Part shown: piece by piece, positions 48,992 to 63,559 of the stretch
Layout: each line of letters starts with the position of its first letter
Numbering within the stretch: the stretch's first letter is position 1
Source of the DNA: Bdellovibrionales bacterium
GTDB lineage: Bacteria > Bdellovibrionota > Bdellovibrionia > Bdellovibrionales > UBA1609
Length of the DNA: 64,000 nt
Direction of reading: 5' to 3'
NCBI GenBank assembly: GCA_965261545.1
Contig: CBDHDF010000007.1
Location: forward strand, 96,001-160,000
Notes under the pieces: model-generated
Database searches by the model: none
The model's input: the letters and a program-made list of their open reading frames with translations, nothing else
What the model was told of the DNA's origin: nothing
Program-made: the position numbers and the translations under genes

Positions 48992-50530
48992 CTATTGTGA
49001 TTGTTCAGGTTGTAATTTCTTCTTAGAAGTGGAATCGAATTTTTTGTGGAAAAGAAATTTGGAAGGTACAGCCTTCCAATTACCAGTGTTTAGAGAAATT
49101 CTATAGTCAGTAGGACATCCACCACGGCCTGTTCCTGCCACACGGTACAGCAAAGCCATCGCAAGATGAAATCTAGGACCCTGAAAATAATGAATTTCAA
49201 TACTTTTATTTTCAGAAGGTGCAAATACATAAGGCTGAGAGGTACAGCGCCACCTCGGAGAATGAAGAGAGTCATCTTGGAGAATAGTCTTTCCGTCGAG
49301 AATAACTCTCATTCCATCGTCAGAGACCATGGCAAACTCATAGGACTTTGATTTTGATCCATTGTTGGGCATAATAAATCCTGAAATACGCAATGAGAAC
49401 CACTCATAGAGTGTATCACCATTTAGGTCTTTAATAAGGGTTCCATCATTGGTTTGAAATCCGTCTTCAAAATATAGAAAAGGGGTATTGACTTGATTCA
49501 AATGGATAAGAGTTGGAATTCTCGTGCCATGTTTCAAATAGCCATCGAGTTTCTTATTATATTTGGTTTGAGAAGAATTCAGGTAATATATATATCCAGC
49601 AAGTCCGTTGGATGAAGTGGAGCATTGTGAATTTTTAAATGGATTACAGATAATTTCCACGGTGTTTACGTTCCAAGAATGACTTTTTTTGCTGGTATCG
49701 CCATTGTTATCAACAGCTACGACATGAAAACTATGTGTTCCAACACGAAGATTTGTTAGAGTTTCTGAGTGGGATGCTTGGCAGCTCCTAGGCTCTTCGT
49801 CATTCAATTGACATGTCACTGAACTCACGCCATCTGAATCTGTCACCAGTAGGCTGATAAGGGCGTCTTTATTTTCTGCATGATCTATAGGAGCTTGATT
49901 AAAATTAATGATAGGACCTTCTCCCGGAGTTTTTTTAAGTACGGGCTCTGGAGGAGGCTCTTTTTTTGGTGGACTTGCAGGTGCGGGCTCTGGAGGAGGC
50001 TCTTTTTTTGGTGGACTTGCAGGTGCGGGCTCTGGAGGAGGCTCTTTTTCTGGTGGACTTGCAGGTGCGGGCTCTGGAGGAGGCTCTTTTTCTGGTGGAC
50101 TTGCAGGTGCGGGCTCTTGAGGAGGCTCTTTTTCTGGTGGGCTTGCAGGTGCGAGTTCTTGAGGAGGCTCTTTTTCTGGCGGACTTGCAGGTGCGGGCTC
50201 TGGAGGAGGCTCTTTTTCTGGTGGACTTGCAGGCGCGGGCTCTGGAGAAGGCTCTTTTTCTGGTGGACTTGCAGGTGCGGGCTCTGGAGAAGGCTCTTTT
50301 TCTGGTGGACTTGCAGGTGCGGGTTCTGGAGGAGGTTCTTTTTCTGGTGGGCTTGGTGCAGGTTCTATTTTGGGAGGATCCAATTGCGTTGTCACAATGG
50401 GGTTTGGATTCAAGGGTTGTTGGGCCTCTTGCTCAGAACTTGGTTTGATGAACGCGCTTCTTTGTTCAAGGCAACCCACTAAAAAAAACAAAGATATTAA
50501 GAGTGTCAGTAGTGAAAAAGAAATTCTCAT
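48992..50530 (-). CDS. Lipoprotein with Pro-rich repeat stalk, Ig-like domain and PA14 domain
   Basis: Lipobox LVGC after MRISF, ~10 PEPAPASPPEKEP repeats, and PA14 motifs EWF, SDDG and IEIHYFQGP. Confidence 0.85.
   Translation of the reverse strand: MRISFSLLTLLISLFFLVGCLEQRSAFIKPSSEQEAQQPLNPNPIVTTQLDPPKIEPAPSPPEKEPPPEPAPASPPEKEPSPEPAPASPPEKEPSPEPAPASPPEKEPPPEPAPASPPEKEPPQELAPASPPEKEPPQEPAPASPPEKEPPPEPAPASPPEKEPPPEPAPASPPKKEPPPEPAPASPPKKEPPPEPVLKKTPGEGPIINFNQAPIDHAENKDALISLLVTDSDGVSSVTCQLNDEEPRSCQASHSETLTNLRVGTHSFHVVAVDNNGDTSKKSHSWNVNTVEIICNPFKNSQCSTSSNGLAGYIYYLNSSQTKYNKKLDGYLKHGTRIPTLIHLNQVNTPFLYFEDGFQTNDGTLIKDLNGDTLYEWFSLRISGFIMPNNGSKSKSYEFAMVSDDGMRVILDGKTILQDDSLHSPRWRCTSQPYVFAPSENKSIEIHYFQGPRFHLAMALLYRVAGTGRGGCPTDYRISLNTGNWKAVPSKFLFHKKFDSTSKKKLQPEQSQ
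49942..50362. repeat. 39-bp in-frame tandem repeat (~10 units)
   Basis: Unit gggctctggaggaggctctttttctggtggacttgcaggtgc-like. Confidence 0.9.
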
Positions 50531-50771
50531 TGTATCTCCAATTATTTTTCTTATAAATGAACCAACTTGGAGATACATGCAGTATATTTTACACATTGAA
50601 ATAAATTTCTTATTCTCTTGATCGGGAATATAAAAATAAACTTTAATATTAATTGGAAAATGTTGTACTTTAACGAGACATTCGCCAATTGTTGTTGGGT
50701 CCACTATTACATCTCTTTAAAATTATAACAATGATATGATATAGGACTTTTTTATGGTGGAGGGAGAGCGA

Positions 50772-50915
50772 ATGAGTGCAGGTTGGCAGTTTGGAATCGA
50801 CCGGGGGGGGCCTTTACCGATATTGTGGCGCGCAGGCCGGATGGTGGCTATGTGATTCGTAAGATGCTTTCCGACGCTCCGGAGGACGAAGACGATGCTG
50901 CACTCCAGGGCAGTG
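50772..50915 (+). pseudogene. 5' fragment of a 5-oxoprolinase/hydantoinase gene
   Basis: MSAGWQFGIDRGG/FTDIVARRPDG...KMLS...DAALQG, frameshifted in a G8 run. GC-rich compared with its surroundings. Confidence 0.75.
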
Positions 50916-52529
50916 ACTCCCCGGACACAATGGCAAACTTTTGGATGTTGGCACAACGTGTCGAACCACAATTTCATTTGTCTTAATGTTCAGCTCAACC
51001 TCCTTTACCAGTAGCCTTACAATCTCCTTTTTTTGCTCAAAACTCAATACCTTTAAGTTGGCACTCACTTTTTTTTGGAATTCTTGGAGTTGATCTACAA
51101 GCTGTAATTGTTGTCCTTCTTGCCTTTGCTCATACTCTAAAGATTGCTTTTCATTTTCAAGTTGCTTTATTTTGCCTCTTATTTTTTTTAATCGTGACTC
51201 TATTTCTGATAGATTTAGAGTTCCATTTTGATAAAGATCCAAGAGACGTTCCTTTTCATGTGTTATTTGACGAATCTCCTGAGCCTTTTTTGCAATTAAT
51301 TTTTCCAATGATTGTTGTTGGCCTTTTTGCTCATGAATTCTATTTGTATACTCATCTATAACTGCCTGAGGATTTTCAAGTAATTTAACTGTTTGTTCCC
51401 AAACTAAGTCATCTAAAACTTCAACTCTTACGGGATGAGATGAGCAAACTCTACCTTTAGCTGGCCATCTATGACCATCTTGTCCCATACAGCGATAATA
51501 ACAACGCTTATACCTTGAATTAGAAGCGGGTTTGCCATAGATCGAATAACCACACTCTTTGCATCGTAAAAGACCACTTAACAAATACTCATATTTTTTA
51601 TTATTCCGAGGGGAAAGTTTTTTGTTAGTTTCCAATTGACTGGATGCATCTTGAAAAGTTTTTGAAGAAATTATAGATGGAACGGGAATATATATCCAAT
51701 CCTTTTTATTTCGATCGGAAGAGCTTGATTTAGGATTTTTTGGATAAAAATTATTGTCTCTTGCTAACTTGGTTGGACGCAACCTTTCTACCTGGATAGT
51801 CTTTCTAAAAGCAGCTTGTCCATAATAAGCGGGGTTTTTAAGCATACACCAAACAGTTGAACGCTCCCAAATACCTTGTTGTTTTTTAGTAGGCACCCCC
51901 CTTATATTTAATTCCTTTGCAATTGCTCTAATACTTAGTTTGTTTCGGCAATACATTTGAAAAACATCTTTAACAACTTTAGACTCTTCTGGATGGACCT
52001 CATATCGTGCGTCAGCGGAGTCTGCTTTCGGAATATATATATAACCATAGGGAGCTCCACATAAAACGCTAACAAAGCCCTTAGAAGCCTTTTGAAGTTT
52101 ACCCCTTCGACTTCTTTCCATAATTTTTTCTCTTTCATATTCTGAAATGACTCCTTGTATTTGTAGCAAAAGCTGATCTTCGGGTGAATTTGTAATATCT
52201 CTATTAGAAAAAATAATTTCAACACCTAGCCTCTGAAATTCTTCAATTAGAATCAATTGATGGGCATATTTACGAGCTAATCTGTCTGGACATAACACAA
52301 GTACCTTTGTAACCTCCCCAGAAAAAGCTTTGTCGCGAAGGGAGTCTAAAGCAGGACGAACAAGGGTGGCACCACTCACACCATTATCCGTAAATATAAG
52401 ATCCTCCTCTACACAAAAGCTGTGTTCCTTAGCGAAATCGTGAAGACTAGAAATCTGTGAATCAATGGTTCCCTCTTGAGCTTGTTTATCTGAGGACACT
52501 CGACAATAAAGAGCTACTGATGTTTCCAT
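50814..52529 (-). CDS. Large serine recombinase (resolvase + recombinase + Zn-ribbon + coiled coil)
   Basis: YCRVSS..Q, D.GVSG..L.RPAL, DRLAR, EYERE.I.ER..RGK, PYGY, LLSGLLRC..CG and YYRC. Confidence 0.95.
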   Translation of the reverse strand: METSVALYCRVSSDKQAQEGTIDSQISSLHDFAKEHSFCVEEDLIFTDNGVSGATLVRPALDSLRDKAFSGEVTKVLVLCPDRLARKYAHQLILIEEFQRLGVEIIFSNRDITNSPEDQLLLQIQGVISEYEREKIMERSRRGKLQKASKGFVSVLCGAPYGYIYIPKADSADARYEVHPEESKVVKDVFQMYCRNKLSIRAIAKELNIRGVPTKKQQGIWERSTVWCMLKNPAYYGQAAFRKTIQVERLRPTKLARDNNFYPKNPKSSSSDRNKKDWIYIPVPSIISSKTFQDASSQLETNKKLSPRNNKKYEYLLSGLLRCKECGYSIYGKPASNSRYKRCYYRCMGQDGHRWPAKGRVCSSHPVRVEVLDDLVWEQTVKLLENPQAVIDEYTNRIHEQKGQQQSLEKLIAKKAQEIRQITHEKERLLDLYQNGTLNLSEIESRLKKIRGKIKQLENEKQSLEYEQRQEGQQLQLVDQLQEFQKKVSANLKVLSFEQKKEIVRLLVKEVELNIKTNEIVVRHVVPTSKSLPLCPGSHCPGVQHRLRPPERRKASYESHSHHPACAPQYR

Positions 52530-52571
52530 TTTTAACCTCCATTATTTTCTGTTGTTTTACTTTCTGCTTTA

Positions 52572-54112
52572 GTAACTGCTCGCACCTTACATAGGAATTT
52601 CTCCCTTGAGAGCCATATTGATGGCCTCTAAGGAAGAGAACCCCTTGTTTCTCATAGTCTTGACATAACTGGTAATCCGACAAAAGTGCTTTGCCATTTT
52701 TGCTGTCCTGAAGCAACCTGATACTTTCTTTTTCACCTTATTCATTCTCAAGTCTCGCTCGGCTCTGTTGTTGGTTGGGTCCACCTCTTTCACTTTGGCA
52801 AAGAGAAGGATTTCTGCTTCATATTTTTTAAAGCGGAGCCAAAGATTTTGAGCATCTGTATGTTTCACTCGTCCTTTTTTACCATTCTTCTCTGGAAAGG
52901 GAGGAAGCTCCTTTAAAGCCCTTGTGAGAATATTCCTATACCTCCTCTGAAGAGTTTGATACTCCTTTCGAGTCAATATCTTAGATTTTCTTTTTTGGAC
53001 CAATTCAACAGCTTCCTGAAGAAGTTTTTTCAGATTGGTGGCCCATTTCGAACCAGAGCTATCCTCCACAAATTTCAATTCCCTAAGAAGATGGGCAACG
53101 CACAGAGCATGAAGCATATCTGTATAAGAAAAATAGGGACTCCAACAGTCATGTACCAAGATACCTCCATACCTGTCCAATATGCCAATATCTTTGATGG
53201 CATCTTTTCCACGGGAAGGATGGATGAACTGCAATGTAAGATCACCACAGCTATAAGTATGAATCCAGTAGTTCTTCTTATTGACTCTCATGGAGGTTTC
53301 GTCAACATGAATGACCACAGACTCAAGGATTTGTTGTTTTGCCCATTGTTCCCACTCTTGAAGAGATTCGCTCAGTTGAGAAATATACTTCAACATGGTT
53401 GAGGGTGAGATAAAGCGGCCAACGAGACCCTTGTAGTGTTCACCAACACGCTGGAGAGACATCATTTGAATGACAATAAAATTAATAATTGAGGCCCTAA
53501 TTCCAATACCATATTGGATCGGTCCATCTATGCCCTCTGGGAATGGGCCTTTGTTTTCTGTACCACATTCATGGCACTCTTTGATTTCAGAGGTGACAGT
53601 GTGGGTGTTTATCTCATAGAGAATATCAATTTTTTTACGCTCTTCGGAGCCTTTCATCTCAGTTTCCTTCAAATCGGCCCCACATTTAGAGCAATTTGAT
53701 GGAGACACTGTTTCCTTGCTCTCTGTGTCCTTACTGTTATCGAGCCTTGATCCTTTCTTGCTGTCTTCCTCAGCCCCTTCCTTATTACGGTTCCCATTGC
53801 TACCAGAGTTCTGAGAAGGGGGCAGCCCACTATTGCTGGAGTTTTTACGAGTCTTTTTTTCCAAAAATAAAGTCACTACAACTGTGAGAATGGTCAGCAT
53901 GGACTGAATAAATAGTTTAGTCTCTCGTGGGATACTCTTGTCAGAAAGAATCTTCTTAGATTCCTTCTGGAGGTTTTCAATTTCGCTTCGTAAGGATTGT
54001 TTTCTTGTATTCACGAAAGAATTATTAAATGGGGAGGCTTGAGAATCAATACTTTAGTATAAAAATGGTCTTTAGGCTAAAAGTCTGGTGTAGAAGGGGT
54101 GCGAGCAGTTAC
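52572..54112 (-). mobile_element. Second, distinct IS66-family element; transposase 52587..54014
   Basis: IR gtaactgctcgcacc and an 8-bp TSD ctgcttta. Motifs NSSNSGLPPS, HVDET, CVAHLLREL and TNNRAERDLR. Confidence 0.93.
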
Positions 54113-54295
54113 CTGCTTTAATTGTTTCTTTATTTTTGGAACAACAACTTCGTATGTCTGTTGAACCCGTGTGGCTTGGTCGCTTTGATAGACACTTTTT
54201 AACTGAGCTGTCCATGGATTTTGATGTTTTGTTTGGTGGGCCATTATCATTCCTTTGACTATGGTTCGAAGCTAAATGGGAAGAATCCTCAGGTG

Positions 54296-55712
54296 CAATG
54301 CCGTTTCCTTAAGCCACCACACCCCTCTGCCTCTGCGTTAAGCTATTTCTTTTAAAAGAACTCCCAGCGCTTTTGATAGACCTTTCATAGCTTCTTTTGA
54401 AGTGCCTCCTCTTCTCCATTGAAATCTTCATCAGCAACTTTATCTGCTTCCTAAATTTCTGATAGAGCCCCGCAACAAAAAGAGGGATGCTATCCATTAT
54501 GAAATCAAGAATCAGTTTAAAGTTAGGTTTTTTGTAGTCATTTTTTACCAACTGATTCACACTGTCTTCATCCTCATTTATGCTCATTTGAATCTTTGTA
54601 TAATTGAAGAGCCAAAAATAAGAATACAGCTCTTGCAATATTCCATTAAGGCTTGTTGAGTGCCACTGCTCCATTTTCATTGTCGATGTAAAATCACGAA
54701 ATGTCGTTTCTATTTCCCAACGACGAGAGTAAAGAGCAACCATATCCTTCTTGTCCAAGGAGCCATGCGGAAGATTAGTGGCCAAAACAGAGAACTCCCC
54801 AGTCTTTGGGTTTTTATACTTATAGAGATGAATGACCACCCCCTCAATAACCATTTGTGAATACCAACCTGGGCCATTAAATAAATTTACGATGGGGATA
54901 AAAGTAGAGCCTCGCTTACAACACGCAATAAAGAAGTTACTGGCTTGAGCATGGGCCTTAATAATCTCTGTAGATAAATAAAGCCTATCGTAGAGAGTTA
55001 TGCTATTACTCTCAAAACTACCTATCATTTGAATAGCATTGGCGATTTCGTTGAGAGCGGGAGAAAAGCAAAGATTCTTTGTCACACCCGATAAAACGTC
55101 ATAAGCATGAGATAGATACATACGTAAGAAATGAGTTTCCATCTCATTTGGGCAAGGGTACCCACAATAACCCTCCTTTAAAAGATCTTTAGAGCGAGGA
55201 AGTGCTAATTGGTCGCCATCTATGGCATAGATATAAAAACCATGAAACGTTTTTCTCAATGGTTCGTAGTCTGTAATCAGAGATTCAAAGATATCTTTGA
55301 AAAATAGGTAAGAAATACTTTGACGTATCTTGCTGAGACTGCTTTTGACTGGCATGAGAAGCAGGTCACCAAAATGAGTCCATACCGTCTTAAGAGCGAT
55401 TTGGTAGCCTTCGTAATTTGTTCCTGAAATAAGATAGATAATGGTAAAAAAGAAAATTTGAGGATTAAATTTTCGATTCCTTTTTTGTTTTTCTGGATCG
55501 ACAAGGTGCTCTGGCTTGAAGGAAGAATCAAGTTTTGGTAGAATAAAATGGTCATCTGTGACGCGAACTCGTCATTTGGGGGCTTTCGAGATCAATATTG
55601 GATTGCATGTGACTTACTCCTTGGTTGAGGGTTGGGTGTAAAATAAAACAAGTCTTATTCTTGTCGATTTATCTAATGATTTCAAGAGATTTTTCTTAAG
55701 GAAACGGCATTG
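54296..55712 (-). mobile_element. IS4-family copy 6
   Basis: IRs intact; 11-bp TSD atcctcaggtg. Confidence 0.95.
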
Positions 55713-56005
55713 ATCCTCAGGTGGATGCCAACGATAGCGAGCATATTTACGACCAATTGCATAAAGTGAATGATTATATATATTTATGGAAATTTCAATG
55801 GAAAAGTTGTCTATTGTGTCCGGGGAGTTTGTCAGCCCCGTCCTTTCGAATATCTTTGCACACTACGCCTTTGACATTTGGTTCAAAGGTGCAGTCAAGA
55901 AGTACACGAGAGGACAAGTGGAAATGTATCGCTACTGCGATGACATCATATTCTGCTGTGAACTTCAGGAGGATGCTGAGAAGGTTTACAGATCACTCCA
56001 AGGAC

Positions 56006-59000
56006 CAATGCCGTTTCCTTAAGCCACCACACCCCTCTGCCTCTGCGTTAAGCTATTTCTTTTAAAAGAACTCCCAGCCCTTTTGATAGACCTTTCATAG
56101 CTTCTTTTGAAGTGCCTCCTCTTCTCCATTGAAATCTTCATCAGCAACTTTATCTGCTTCCTAAATTTCTGATAGAGCCCCGCAACAAAAAGGGGGATGC
56201 TATCCATTATGAAATCAAGAATCAGTTTAAAGTTAGGTTTTTTGTAGTCATTTTTTACCAACTGATTCACACTGTCTTCATCCTCATTTATGCTCATTTG
56301 AATCTTTGTATAATTGAAGAGCCAAAAATAAGAATACAGCTCTTGCAATATTCCATTAAGGCTTGTTGAGTGCCACTGCTCCATTTTCATTGTCGATGTA
56401 AAATCACGAAATGTCGTTTCTATTTCCCAACGACGAGAGTAAAGAGCAACCATATCCTTCTTGTCCAAGGAGCCATGCGGAAGATTAGTGGCCAAAACAG
56501 AGAACTCCCCAGTCTTTGGGTTTTTATACTTATAGAGATGAATGACCACCCCCTCAATAACCATTTGTGAATACCAACCTGGGCCATTAAATAAATTTAC
56601 GATGGGGATAAAAGTAGAGCCTCGCTTACAACGCGCAATAAAGAAGTTACTGGCTTGAGCATGGGCCTTAATAATCTCTGTAGATAAATAAAGCCTATCG
56701 TAGAGAGTTATGCTATTACTCTCAAAACTACCTATCATTTGAATAGCATTGGCGATTTCGTTGAGAGCGGGAGAAAAGCAAAGATTCTTTGTCACACCCG
56801 ATAAAACGTCATAAGCATGAGATAGATACATACGTAAGAAATGAGTTTCCATCTCATTTGGGCAAGGGTACCCACAATAACCCTCCTTTAAAAGATCTTT
56901 AGAGCGAGGAAGTGCTAATTGGTCGCCATCTATGGCATAGATATAAAAGCCATGAAACGTTTTTCTCAATGGTTCGTAGTCTGTAATCAGAGATTCAAAG
57001 ATATTTTTAAAAAATAGGTAAGAAATACTTTGACGTATCTTGCTGAGACTGCTTTTGACTGGCATGAGAAGCAGGTCACCAAAATGAGTCCATACCGTCT
57101 TAAGAGCGATTTGGTAGCCTTCGTAATTTGTTCCGGAAATAAGATAGATAATAGTAAAAAAGAAAATTTGAGGATTAAATTTTCGATTCCTTTTTTGTTT
57201 TTCTGGATCGACAAGGTGCTCTGGCTTGAAGGAAGAATCAAGTTTTGGTAGAATAAAATGGTCATCTGTGACGCGAACTCGTCATTTGGGGGCTTTCGAG
57301 ATCAATATTGGATTGCATGTGACTTACTCCTTGGTTGAGGGTTGGGTGTAAAATAAAACAAGTCTTATTCTTGTCGATTTATCTAATAATTTCAAGAGAT
57401 TTTTCTTAAGGAAACGAGCCTGTAAACTATTTTGTGTAACTGCCGAATCATATTAGGATGAACTATCATCCTGAAAGGAGAAGGCAGAATGGATATCAAG
57501 ACAATAGGCAAGGAACTAGCGAAGAACGTCAAGACCCAAAAGGATTTATCCGACATAACGGGTCAACTGATGAAGGTTGTTTTAGAGACGGCCCTTAATG
57601 CGGAAATGGACGATCACCTAGGTTATGAGAGGCATGAGAAGTCTGAGACCCGCAAATCCAACACTCGCAATGGTTACAGTAGAAAGACCATAAAGGGAGA
57701 GAAAGGCGAGGTGGAGCTTCAGGTCCCCCGTGACCGAAGTGCCTCCTTTGAACCTCAAGTCATTCCCAAGGGTAAGACTCGTCTTGAGGGCTTTGAAGAC
57801 AGTATCCTGACCCTCTATGCGAGGGGAATGACGACCAGGGATATTCAAGGAGCTATCAAAGACCTCTACCATGGTGCAGAGATATCCCACTCTGATAGCC
57901 AACGTGACGGATGCTGTTATTGATGAAGTTACGGCTTGGCAGAACCGCCCCTTGGATAGCACTTACCCTATCGTATTTTTGGACTGTATCGTGGTGAAGG
58001 TCCATCAAGACAAGAGAGTTATTAATAAGGCGATTTACCTAGCTCTTGGTATTACAGAGGAGGGTCAGAAAGACTTGTTGGGCCTATGGATTTCTGAAAA
58101 TGAGGGTTCAAAGTTTTGGTTGAGTGTTTTGACTGAGCTGCAAAATCGAGGGTTGAAAGATGTATTTATATTTTCTGTAGATGGTCTTACAGGTTTTCCT
58201 CAAGCCATTTCAGCGGCTTTTCCCAAGTCTAAAGTGCAACTGTGCATTGTCCATATGGTCCGCAATTCCCTTCGCTATGTTCCTTCCAAGGATATGAAAG
58301 CTGTCGCCCAAGACCTCAAGTCCATTTATGGCTCTACGACTCTGACAGAAGCTGAAAAGGCCCTTGAGGAATTTTGTACCAAGTGGTCTTCAAAGTATCC
58401 GAATATTGAAAAGTCTTGGCGTAGGAATTGGGACAATCTCATCACTATTTTCGATTATCCGGATGAAATCAGAAAGATTTTTTATACCACAAACGCCATA
58501 GAGTCGTTAAATAGCGTGATCCGCAAGGCGATCAGAAATCGTAAGATATTTCCCAGTGATCGGTCGGCTTTAAAAGTTGTATATTTAGCGATAAAAATGG
58601 CCTCTAAGCGATGGACACGACCATTACACAACTGGAAGCCAGCCATGAACAGGTTTGCCATTGAATACGGTGACCGTTTTGACAACTAAGTTTTTTAATA
58701 AGGTCCACCACCTGCCTTATAAGGGGGCTTAAAAGCCCCTCTAAGGCGTTGACAGAAGTACTGGAATACCGAGACTATGGTTAGGGTAATATAGTATGGG
58801 AACCTAAATACATGCCCTCTTGGTGCAGATTTGGGTTTCCATTTTTTTTCATATTTCATCCCAATGCTGGTATTTCTCGAATATCCTAAGTTAAAAAAAA
58901 TAAAAAAAGGGGGTAATATAGTATGGGAACCTAAACACATGAACCCTTTGATGAGATTGGAATTTCCATTTTTTTGAGAGAGCCATTGCTGATTTTTTTT

Positions 59001-60744
59001 CAACCAAGATGATAATTATTTATTTGAGTTCTTTCCAGTTCTGATATGATCCCATTACGGCTCCATAATACAATCAAAAGTCCAGAGTAACTAAAGAGGC
59101 CAATTATATAGACCAGCGAAGATGTCCACCTCCCCATTAACTTAATAATGCATTGTGACTGACAAAATCGCTTGAAGGAAAAAATGTCAATTATACATTG
59201 ACGAATAATATGGGACTGTGCTTTTTACCAGGAGTGGAGCCACATAAGTGGCTTTAAGATTTAAGAAAAAAATTGCAGTTACACAATTATTTTTACAGTC
59301 CCAAGGAAACGGCATTGCTCCAAGGACCAATGCCGTTTCCTTAAGCCACCACACCCCTCTGCCTCTGCGTTAAGCTATTTCTTTTAAAAGAACTCCCAGC
59401 CCTTTTGATAGACCTTTCATAGCTTCTTTTGAAGTGCCTCCTCTTCTCCATTGAAATCTTCATCAGCAACTTTATCTGCTTCCTAAATTTCTGATAGAGC
59501 CCCGCAACAAAAAGAGGGATGCTATCCATTATGAAATCAAGAATCAGTTTAAAGTTAGGTTTTTTGTAGTCATTTTTTACCAACTGATTCACACTGTCTT
59601 CATCCTCATTTATGCTCATTTGAATCTTTGTATAATTGAAGAGCCAAAAATAAGAATACAGCTCTTGCAATATTCCATTAAGGCTTGTTGAGTGCCACTG
59701 CTCCATTTTCATTGTCGATGTAAAATCACGAAATGTCGTTTCTATTTCCCAACGACGAGAGTAAAGAGCAACCATATCCTTCTTGTCCAAGGAGCCATGC
59801 GGAAGATTAGTGGCCAAAACAGAGAACTCCCCAGTCTTTGGGTTTTTATACTTATAGAGATGAATGACCACCCCCTCAATAACCATTCGTGAATACCAAC
59901 CTGGGCCATTAAATAAATTTACAATGGGGATAAAAGTAGAGCCTCGCTTACAACGCGCAATAAAGAAGTTACTGGCTTGAGCATGGGCCTTAATAATCTC
60001 TGTAGATAAATAAAGCCTATCGTAGAGAGTTATGCTATTACTCTCAAAACTACCTATCATTTGAATAGCATTGGCGATTTCGTTCAGAGCGGGAGAATAG
60101 CAAAGATTCTTTGTCACACCCGATAAAACGTCATAAGCATGAGATAGATACATACGTAAGAAATGAGTTTCCATCTCATTTGGGCAAGGGTACCCACAAT
60201 AACCCTCCTTTAAAAGATCTTTAGAGCGAGGAAGTGCTAATTGGTCGCCATCTATGGCATAGATATAAAAACCATGAAACGTTTTTCTCAATGGTTCGTA
60301 GTCTGTAATCAAAGATTCAAAGATATCTTTGAAAAATAGGTAAGAAATACTTTGACGTATCTTGCTGAGACTGCTTTTGACTGGCATGAGAAGCAGGTCA
60401 CCAAAATGAGTCCATACCGTCTTAAGAGCGATTTGGTAGCCTTCGTAATTTGTTCCGGAAATAAGATAGATAATGGTAAAAAAGAAAATTTGAGGATTAA
60501 ATTTTCGATTCCTTTTTTGTTTTTCTGGATCGACAAGGTGCTCTGACTTGAAGGAAGAATCAAGTTTTGGTAGAATAAAATGGTCATCTGTGACGCGAAC
60601 TCGTCATTTGGGGGCTTTCGAGATCAATATTGGATTGCATGTGACTTACTCCTTGGTTGAGGGTTGGGTGTAAAATAAAACAAGTCTTATTCTTGTCGAT
60701 TTATCTAATAATTTCAAGAGATTTTTCTTAAGGAAACGGCATTG
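56006..60744 (-). mobile_element. IS4-family copies 7 (56006-59317, IR split by IS256) and 8 (59328-60744) in direct tandem
   Basis: TSD ctccaaggac occurs three times (55996, 59318, 60745). Confidence 0.95.
57416..59302 (+). mobile_element. IS256-family copy 2, frameshifted (2-nt deletion near 57893)
   Basis: Same IRs as copy 1; 8-bp TSD aaggaaac lies inside the IS4 IR. Confidence 0.95.
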
Positions 60745-61247
60745 CTCCAAGGACGAACCGAGAGGTTTTCCCTTAAGATGAATGTAGAGAAAACCAAGCG
60801 TATCACCTTTTCTAAAGCCAAGGCTCGACGAGGTGAGAAGCAAGGTACCTTCGACTTCTTAGGTTTCACCTTCTACATAAGTAAACGCAGAGGGCGCATA
60901 CTGCCCAAGATTAAATCCAATGGACGTAGAATAAGGAAGAAGCTACAGGTAGTCAAAGAGTGGTGCCGAGCCAACCGTCACAGAGGTACATTGTGCGAGC
61001 TGTGGGAGAGGTTTTGCAAGAAGCTCAGAGGACACGCCCAGTACTATGCTGTCTCCGATAATTACAAAGGAGTGAAGAATTTCTTTCACTACGCCATTAG
61101 GATTTTCTTCAAATGGATGAACAGACGTAGTCAGCGAAGATCTTTTGATTGGAATAAGTTTAACAGGTTCCTTGCTAACTTTCCTCCACCAAGGGTTCGC
61201 ATAGTACACAAGCTGTATTGATATAGTTGAGTGAGTAGAGTTATCGT

Positions 61248-61320
61248 CCGCCTATTGCCTTAATTGGGCACGATGGGTGGGAACGGGGGTTGGGTCGGGT
61301 AACCGGCCCTTCTACCCAAT
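61248..61320 (+). ncRNA. Group II intron domains V and VI
   Basis: ccgcctattgccttaattgggcacgatgggtgg hairpin with a CGC triad and AC bulge, then gggttgggtcgggtaaccggcccttctaccc-aat. Confidence 0.8.
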
Positions 61321-63559
61321 AATGTTATCACATCTGTAATACTTCCCGGATATAATCTGTAAGCTATTGGAAGGCTAGCACTCTTAATATTGGAATCTAC
61401 TTTGAAGTTTTGACTTAAAATACCTAAATTGGTTTGAGCCAAATTCTCGCCATCTCTATTGTAACCTCTTTCCAAGAAGTCATTCTCAGAACCATAAGAG
61501 GAAATAGAAGTAATGTCGAACATGACGGCTTGAGAACTATCCTTATGGCTTTGAATCCAATTCATAAAAAAATTTTCTATAGCATCTTCATCATTACCAA
61601 TAATAGATAGAAATTTACTTATTAATTTTGAATTCAGATTATGATCATTTGAAACATAAGAAGCCTCACACCATAAAGGGCAATGCCGTTTCCTTAAGCC
61701 ACCACACCCCTCTGCCTCTGCGTTAAGCTATTTCTTTTAAAAGAACTCCCAGCCCTTTTGATAGACCTTTCATAGCTTCTTTTGAAGTGCCTCCTCTTCT
61801 CCATTGAAATCTTCATCAGCAACTTTATCTGCTTCCTAAATTTCTGATAGAGCCCCGCAACAAAAAGGGGGATGCTATCCATTATGAAATCAAGAATCAG
61901 TTTAAAGTTAGGTTTTTTGTAGTCATTTTTTACCAACTGATTCACACTGTCTTCATCCTCATTTATGCTCATTTGAATCTTTGTATAATTGAAGAGCCAA
62001 AAATAAGAATACAGCTCTTGCAATATTCCATTAAGGCTTGTTGAGTGCCACTGCTCCATTTTCATTGTCGATGTAAAATCACGAAATGTCGTTTCTATTT
62101 CCCAACGACGAGAGTAAAGAGCAACCATATCCTTCTTGTCCAAGGAGCCATGCGGAAGATTAGTGGCCAAAACAGAGAACTCCCCAGTCTTTGGGTTTTT
62201 ATACTTATAGAGATGAATGACCACCCCCTCAATAACCATTTGTGAATACCAACCTGGGCCATTAAATAAATTTACGATGGGGATAAAAGTAGAGCCTCGC
62301 TTACAACGCGCAATAAAGAAGTTACTGGCTTGAGCATGGGCCTTAATAATCTCTGTAGATAAATAAAGCCTATCGTAGAGAGTTATGCTATTACTCTCAA
62401 AACTACCTATCATTTGAATAGCATTGGCGATTTCGTTGAGAGCGGGAGAATAGCAAAGATTCTTTGTCACACCCGATAAAACGTCATAAGCATGAGATAG
62501 ATACGTACGTAAGAAATGAGTTTCCATCTCATTTGGGCAAGGGTACCACAATAACCCTCCTTTAAAAGATCTTTAGAGCGAGGAAGTGCTAATTGGTCGC
62601 CATCTATGGCATAGATATAAAAGCCATGAAACGTTTTTCTCAATGGTTCGTAGTCTGTAATCAGAGATTCAAAGATATTTTTAAAAAATAGGTAAGAAAT
62701 ACTTTGACGTATCTTGCTGAGACTGCTTTTGACTGGCATGAGAAGCAGGTCACCAAAATGAGTCCATACCGTCTTAAGAGCGATTTGGTAGCCTTCGTAA
62801 TTTGTTCCGGAAATAAGATAGATAATAGTAAAAAAGAAAATTTGAGGATTAAATTTTCGATTCCTTTTTTGTTTTTCTGGATCGACAAGGTGCTCTGGCT
62901 TGAAGGAAGAATCAAGTTTTGGTAGAATAAAATGGTCATCTGTGACGCGAACTCGTCATTTGGGGGCTTTCGAGATCAATATTGGATTGCATGTGACTTA
63001 CTCCTTGGTTGAGGGTTGGGTGTAAAATAAAACAAGTCTTATTCTTGTCGATTTATCTAATAATTTCAAGAGATTTTTCTTAAGGAAACGGCATTGCCAT
63101 AAAGGGTAAAGGTAATAGGGCTCTTTTGTAATGATTTTAAAAAAAGATAAATAAAGAATTTGTTCATAATCATCTGGAAAAGATTTTTTAAGTATTTGTA
63201 TCAAACCTAATCTCTTGCTAATGTATTTCAATAAATGGAGAGAACCAATATCTTGGGAAGATGTTGGAATACTGGGTTGAGATTTAGGAATTAGTTTACC
63301 TGTTGATGGGTCCTTTTTGCCAAGGTAAACCTTTTTAGAACGAGATTGTTTCTTCTCTTTGTCCCAAGAGCTTGTGGACCTATAGAGGTAAGTTTGGCCC
63401 TTTATTTCTTGCTCATATATAGAAGACATGACCACAATTATGGCTATGAATGCAACGCGTTGTCAAGACTTTAAAAGGATAAGCATTCAATATATTCGAC
63501 TTCAGAGCAAAAACTAGACTTTAATCCACAACCTAGCGATAACTGAAGAAGATTTCAGG
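61321..63559 (-). mobile_element. Second IS1634-family element, 5' half only; split by IS4 copy 9 and cut by the intron
   Basis: IR cctgaaatcttcttcag... at 63559. Motifs WDKEKKQSR, FDITS.SSY, GYNRD and YPGSI.DV. Confidence 0.85.
61681..63096 (-). mobile_element. IS4-family copy 9 (1-nt deletion frameshift)
   Basis: TSD ccataaaggg; gggtaccaca here versus gggtacccaca in the other copies. Confidence 0.95.

Follow-up and report, generated by a model that had tools for sequence, protein, structure and literature searches.

A cargo-free large serine recombinase transposon whose relatives mostly occupy one codon of group II intron reverse transcriptase genes

We describe a mobile element from a 64,000-nucleotide stretch of a Bdellovibrionales bacterium (hereafter the window; positions 96,001 to 160,000 of contig CBDHDF010000007.1, GenBank assembly GCA_965261545.1), in which a gene for a large serine recombinase (LSR) is enclosed by inverted repeats (IRs) and adjoins one half of the reverse transcriptase (RT) gene of a group II intron. 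The element is real, has been recently active and belongs to a widespread family. We consider it probable (roughly 0.75) that it is a cargo-free LSR transposon of insertion sequence (IS) size, 1.9-2.2 kb long, most members of which reside at the third codon after the Pro-Gln-Gly (PQG) motif of intron RTs and would move as a circle. Its anatomy, copy number, target position, freedom of orientation, split coding frame and hybrid flanks were observed directly.

Sequence comparison gives good support to the view that most insertions of the family hit a single, exact codon in the RT genes of group II introns. Using an LSR profile built from a 46-sequence alignment, relatives were recognized in 564 of 600 metagenome stretches, and the best 80 of the 564 were kept. 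To find their termini, a matrix was derived from 55 inverted-repeat ends in the same loci, with no knowledge of the target built in; out of the 160 ends in the 80 loci, 44 were not found, 11 had less than 30 nt of flank and 105 could be scored. RT junctions were present at 87/105 scored ends, by a test that 0.083% of all positions pass by chance. The junction came 9 nt downstream of PQG at each of the 43 front-half ends and 4 nt upstream of Ser-Pro (SP) at each of the 44 back-half ends, other offsets being permitted. Counted per locus the RT was targeted in 59/68 cases, and per 90% nucleotide cluster in 45/54. An earlier note on this DNA had proposed looking for RT PQG motifs in the flanks of homologous LSRs, and the enrichment it anticipated was thus found. 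A second sample comprised 119 database homologues (85 with the end motif, 15 of these with tails too short to score), and in 52 of the 70 scorable ones the read-through tail matched the RT site, 28 times in sense and 24 times in antisense (chance 1.7%). One further locus (L001) also occupies the RT site, as do three of the six plasmid loci examined (out of 47 matching records), while two of the latter lie elsewhere and one lacks clear ends. No RT was detected near the seven loci that carry more distant LSRs (25-39% identity). Two loci (L003:1144-3089 and L005:2153-4102) harbour LSR elements of 32-35% identity, with the same size, similar inverted ends and no RT flank, and appear to form a sister group with another target.

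Elements measured from end to end span 1645-2196 bp in 45 loci, contain two open reading frames (ORFs) and no cargo, and finish in GG(A/C)GT plus one base. The two offsets sum to a 4-nt spacer made up of one element base, a 2-nt core and one element base, where the core falls on bases one and two of the third codon that follows PQG. With GG(A/C)GT-N, the end of the element equals the Gly-Val codons (GGN-GTN) of the target, and the Pro codon provides the mirror CC, as displayed by the sequence logo. This pseudo-palindromic target explains why both orientations occur, 10 of each among the loci having one front and one back RT half. The cores at the two ends were equal in 11/20 of these loci and different in 9/20. 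Many core dinucleotides are in use: among the 87 RT-oriented cores AT, CT and GT predominate and GA is absent.

The window copy itself (positions are those of the window) is composed as follows.

50772..50912, plus strand: 5' fragment of a 5-oxoprolinase/hydantoinase gene, the true left flank, with a frameshift in a G run near 50803-50810.
50913-50942: element end on the LSR 3' side, formed by the 2-nt core plus 1 nt (50913-50915) and then the IR (50916-50942), which encodes the last LSR residues, LCPGS.
50916..52529, minus strand: large serine recombinase (PF00239, PF07508, PF13408), which reads on to 50814 in the window copy.
52486..54244, minus strand: conserved 69-codon small ORF, overlapping the LSR start and split by IS66; its motif is found in 55/61 loci.
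52572..54112, minus strand: nested IS66-family element, with an 8-bp target duplication.
54296..55712, minus strand: nested IS4-family element, with an 11-bp target duplication.
55713..55826, minus strand: start-less conserved coding frame of the leader end, extending 38 codons as far as the IS4 element, in the LSR frame when the family's 4-nt spacer joins the ends.
55802..55830: leader-side IR (55802-55828) plus two bases (55829-55830), one base above the family norm.
55831..56000, plus strand: RT of a group II intron, 3' half, which begins with the V-S-P codons (best match TIGR04416).
56001..60744: IS4 copies and IS256 within the RT 3' half.
60745..61320, plus strand: remaining RT/maturase and intron 3' end, the terminal 19-mer of which occurs at 9 places with differing flanks.

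The bounding IRs are 27 nt long and 89% complementary. Once the nested IS66 and IS4 (with one target duplication each) are removed, 1936 bp remain, which differ by 1 mismatch from an uninterrupted copy on another contig (C10:793054-794989), and short-read contigs (from four runs of one sample, possibly the source of the assembly) show both skips. The earlier note's account of the element was accurate in these respects: a remainder of about 1936 bp holding the LSR and one small ORF (which precedes the LSR), IRs as boundaries (as they are in all 9 two-ended copies of the genome), and an LSR that has no stop codon inside the element and reads into the target. In the window, 538 in-element codons are followed by flanking sequence, giving a protein of 571 aa. 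It carries the Resolvase, Recombinase and Zn-ribbon domains (Pfam, above cut-off), and the catalytic S12 and four Cys are invariant in the 46-sequence alignment. A catalytic resolvase domain with its serine, a recombinase domain and a zinc ribbon with coiled coil, the hallmarks of large serine recombinases, are thus all present; the Pfam search gave no DUF4368 match in this LSR. Model and fold matches were to SPbeta, phiC31, Bxb1 and A118-type integrases. The disrupted target has an RT/maturase ORF and a common 3' end amid differing flanks, as a group II intron should; no Rfam covariance model matched its ribozyme domains V/VI, and both RT pieces (window and C10) have TIGR04416 as best match, below cut-off as the fragments they are. 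The window copy is decaying, since IS66 splits the 69-codon ORF and IS4 sits just behind the leader-end frame.

The surroundings hold further repeats. The IS256 in the RT 3' half is flanked by two IS4 copies that share one target duplication (55996-60744), and the IS4 family, of which the window has some ten ends of either kind, shows very high read depth. Pieces resembling an IS1634-type transposase by eye (none by Pfam) lie at 61260-61565 and 62998-63435, where the intron is apparently inserted. To the left of the element, 48992-50704 encodes a predicted 570-aa lipoprotein in which a Pro-rich stretch of 14 residues (42-bp unit) recurs about ten times and a PA14 domain is weakly matched.

The two flanks of the window copy come from different loci. 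The left one aligns to residues 22-64 of a 5-oxoprolinase/hydantoinase in a relative (G029; 1212-residue frame, tblastn E 2e-11) and shows a weak Hydant_A_N match (Pfam). The remainder of this gene (residue 70 onward) is found at C10:793036-789618, adjoining the reciprocal element copy, which on its other side is flanked by the front half that the window's RT lacks; the two oxoprolinase halves are colinear with the gene of the relative. At the oxoprolinase insertion, target bases were neither lost nor duplicated. Because the window and C10 copies have reciprocal flanks, the window copy is best read as a decayed hybrid, produced when twin elements, one in the intron RT and the other in the oxoprolinase gene, exchanged flanks, for which a crossover would be the simplest cause. 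The earlier note had joined the window flanks into QGSVVSPVLSN, taken as the conserved RT motif. This does not hold, as the left flank is oxoprolinase and the true empty site (3 occurrences in the genome) reads PQGSCVSP; the bases it assigned to the Ser-Val of the RT belong to the element ends. Nor does the left flank resemble an IR half-site, the supposed likeness being out of register and the site scoring at background under the family target matrix. The absence of a target site duplication is true and trivial, as the flanks derive from two loci. From a coincidental join the note had nevertheless reached the right family-level idea: its minimal LSR element parasitizing intron RTs at conserved codons is borne out by the homologue flanks, though not by the window evidence cited for it. 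What it missed were the off-target sites, the free orientation and core, and the LSR C-terminus at the opposite end.

The hybrid flanks could also stem from an assembly swap across the repeat, in which case the cell would hold one copy inside the RT and another inside the oxoprolinase gene. The window and C10 copies are near-identical, no short-read contig crosses the whole window element, and the GC skew at the breakpoints is too noisy to mark one; the contig covering 50600-50942 has zero differences to the window and passes the left junction by 27 bases, below the 31-base criterion. We hold such a swap to be unlikely, as this 11-contig assembly resolves very many longer repeats and both copies would need swapping. 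In either case the left flank is not RT.

The genome contains 11 element copies (9 two-ended, 2 partial) and one 13-bp end remnant, which lies outside the window (C7:526664) on the 3' half of a decayed RT into which a small inverted-repeat sequence has also been inserted. An intact canonical copy, with the 4-nt spacer, is found at C11:871158-873093. Five copies form subtype A and occupy the PQG site of three different introns and the oxoprolinase gene; the six copies of subtype B (C10:177069, C10:1015212, C11:547567, C6:254590, C2:454383, C2:409443) include five at another position of a fourth RT, of whose intron four empty copies exist, and one with an IS21-like left flank. This left flank (C2:409423-409442) is made of the 19 bases with which a repeated IS21-like element begins, and no reciprocal copy was found in the genome. 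The fourth RT has VQGSNISP as its own motif, away from the subtype B site, and the nesting is element within intron within IS21 end repeats; since the host intron lies in such repeats, the five RT-site copies may descend from one insertion. Subtype B shows an AC core on both sides, which comparison with the empty sites identifies as the central dinucleotide typical of LSRs. In unrearranged copies the 2-bp core is repeated on both sides where donor and target cores agree; in one copy of the genome, GC stands on one side, against GT at the empty site.

The subtype B LSR is 95% identical to that of A, with 28/538 residues changed, 17 of them within residues 156-310, and is substituted at family-conserved positions such as W227 (41/45), presumably in a DNA-reading helix, and R342 (41/45). 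The ratio pN/pS reached 0.81 in the recombinase domain vs 0.43 and 0.26 elsewhere (the nonsynonymous counts being upper bounds). It is possible that subtype B was retargeted to a new RT site. Relatives of the LSR were found in 0/60 relatives searched and in 1/400 genomes of the phylum, and a single-protein scan of genome contigs gave only 8 loci.

The missing stop codon reflects an LSR C-terminus that is encoded at the opposite end of the element. In the leader end, one frame is open for at least 30 codons in 59/62 loci (vs 1 and 13 for the other frames) and is conserved as protein, with differences by codon position of 0.33/0.26/0.52. The opposite element end is in the LSR frame in 51/51 loci, and the joint computed with the 4-nt spacer is free of stops in 40/42. 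As the LSR gene is cut by its own attachment (att) site, the enzyme would end in a conserved tail of some 35 residues when encoded by the circle and in a random one when encoded by the integrated form; judged from sequence alone, an att site inside the integrase ORF, with free and integrated forms that differ, is what this arrangement amounts to. In the database proteins P0127, P0139 and P0140 transposase or Rep genes read into the leader-end frame, indicating insertions in other mobile genes. The small ORF (conserved in the 55/61 loci listed above) may have a directionality or repressor role, which we offer as conjecture: its product matched no Pfam family, gave Atlas matches below 0.8 and a mostly helical model (pTM 0.36) with no fold match, and a correspondingly placed small gene of Bradyrhizobium bears an unverified RefSeq label of ribbon-helix-helix. 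A promoter scan of the leader returned 2 weak sites vs 1.4 expected.

Drawing on LSR biochemistry, we propose that the LSR would excise a circle with the joint end-N-core-N-end, which would integrate conservatively at a pseudo-palindromic target (GGNGTN-nn-NWSNCC) supplied by the Gly-Val and Ser-Pro codons of the RT and apparently mimicked by the element's own ends. The core mismatches and the flanks of the oxoprolinase insertion point to exchange without core matching, in which the donor core is carried along (chimeric assembly may inflate the count), and we conjecture that strand exchange tolerates unmatched core dinucleotides. Such tolerance would explain both the two orientations and the differing end cores. 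The tail probably biases the reaction, so that, conjecturally, the long form integrates and the short form, perhaps with the small protein, excises. The RT ORF sits in a loop that tolerates insertions, and the element might hitchhike on the intron RNA.

Several findings weigh against a circle-borne element directed at the PQG codon. The RT test failed at 18/105 ends and 9/68 loci (several being degenerate RT sites by eye), 18/70 homologue tails are not RT, and 3/6 distinct target sites of the genome are non-PQG, two of which score at background under the family target matrix. At 8/28 two-sided loci like RT halves are paired (front with front or back with back), although these pairs, and the core mismatches, may be assembly chimeras. 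In 3/4 subtype A copies that keep the leader end, the window's included, an extra base shifts the tail out of frame, and these copies nonetheless occupy three different sites; they might be helped in trans by others. No circle joint was recovered from 112 loci, from viral contigs or from the contigs of the four runs (contigs drop rare forms), and no full-length protein with the tail fused to the LSR appeared among the 25 and 36 hits to the tail.

The off-target insertions would be expected of a relaxed, multi-target LSR with a short sequence preference, for which RT sites dominate because harmless insertions in selfish DNA survive; the tail-frame proteins that run in from transposase and Rep genes agree with this. 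We nevertheless find it an unlikely explanation, as such survival bias would scatter insertions over introns and IS elements, yet all 87 of the 87 RT junctions fall on one base. Replicative movement of the cointegrate or inversion type would directly give one donor and one new flank, as in the mixed flanks of 3/11 copies (window, C10:794989, C2:409443) and the 8/28 loci with two front or two back RT halves. It is decidedly improbable, given that serine recombinases are established to cut and rejoin without replication, that the in-frame joint implies selection on an end-joined form, and that twin homologous recombination or mis-assembly yields the same pattern.

Loss of the element from canonical copies would give the RT its frame back (with an I, V, L or A codon for most cores), as it would in a domesticated switch that repairs the RT on cue in the manner of sporulation or heterocyst excision elements. 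We judge this very unlikely in view of the patchy distribution in relatives and phylum, the intact intron copies beside occupied ones, the insertion in either orientation and the decay by nested IS elements. That a leader RNA guides targeting, as the bridge RNAs of IS110 do, is hardly credible despite the IS-like size, inverted ends and leader of about 320 bp, for the leader codes protein, matches its own target no better than other or shuffled targets (the longest match averaging 6.6, 6.5 and 6.4 nt, respectively; n=46) and, in subtype B, differs from A beyond the IR by 5 scattered bases.

More tentatively, and with less confidence than we place in the RT-targeting transposon set out above, minimal LSR transposons might be dedicated parasites of introns, with the RT as landing pad, a core-blind exchange, a switch made of tail and small protein, a ride on trans-complemented retrohoming, and a specificity that a few changes in the recombinase domain could retarget. 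Group II introns usually figure as the party that invades other mobile elements; in the present case it is their own RT genes that a DNA element inactivates, at the most strongly conserved codons and in widely differing bacteria. This would hold back the spread of introns and would bias surveys of RT genes through split RTs and LSRs annotated with spurious tails. If any-core exchange and the far-end tail are true, they would depart from the matching-core rule of integrase engineering, and if the tail is needed, LSRs cloned from integrated copies would have been tested in the wrong form. The natural pair of 95%-identical enzymes at different sites should aid the mapping of specificity.

In the literature searched, the coverage of which was limited (most subscription journals and ISfinder lay outside it), no LSR element aimed at intron RT genes was encountered. 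Closest in movement are the clostridial LSR transposons Tn4451/Tn4453 (TnpX), Tn5397 (TndX) and Tn6104, which move by LSR excision and integration, as proposed for the present element; the TnpX/TndX transposons have a 2-bp target overlap and a circular form (PMC3158075), and TndX favours a conserved coding region, the Fic domain (PMC4430133). They carry resistance, mobilisation or conjugation genes and Tn5397 always has a central GA, whereas the family described here lacks cargo and a fixed GA. Its elements have two genes and long inverted ends, occur in both orientations with cores that vary and often fail to match, and target the RT of another mobile element. Durrant et al. report LSR clusters that converge on one conserved coding position, e.g. 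in magnesium chelatase/protease or prolyl isomerase genes (PMC10083194, available text); there the carriers are phages or integrative and conjugative elements (ICEs), in contrast to an IS-sized element, and RT targets are not named in that text or in its 8 supplementary files, which may be incomplete. IS607 is IS-sized too, with a serine recombinase and a proposed circular intermediate with 2-bp overlap (PMC4058570). Its TnpA, however, is a small protein whose domains come in inverted order; it uses a fixed GG overlap, shows little target specificity and is accompanied by TnpB. The element of the window is not an IS607, its LSR reaching 42 bits against the model of that family (cut-off 110).

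On its own the split gene is no novelty, since att sites inside integrase genes have been published. In such systems integration alters the integrase C-terminus; in Int of the myxophage Mx8, 112 residues are replaced by 13 and the activity changes (PMC4701971, PMC6070905), and the serine integrases of streptococcal rumA ICEs and the archaeal SSV-type integrases have att inside their own gene (PMC4701971, PMC6070905, PMC7253208). In Mx8 and SSV the enzyme is a tyrosine recombinase, belonging to a virus or plasmid, and the rumA elements are large ICEs with one fixed target; the element of the window, by contrast, keeps every known LSR domain and would exchange only a short tail, for another random one at each site.

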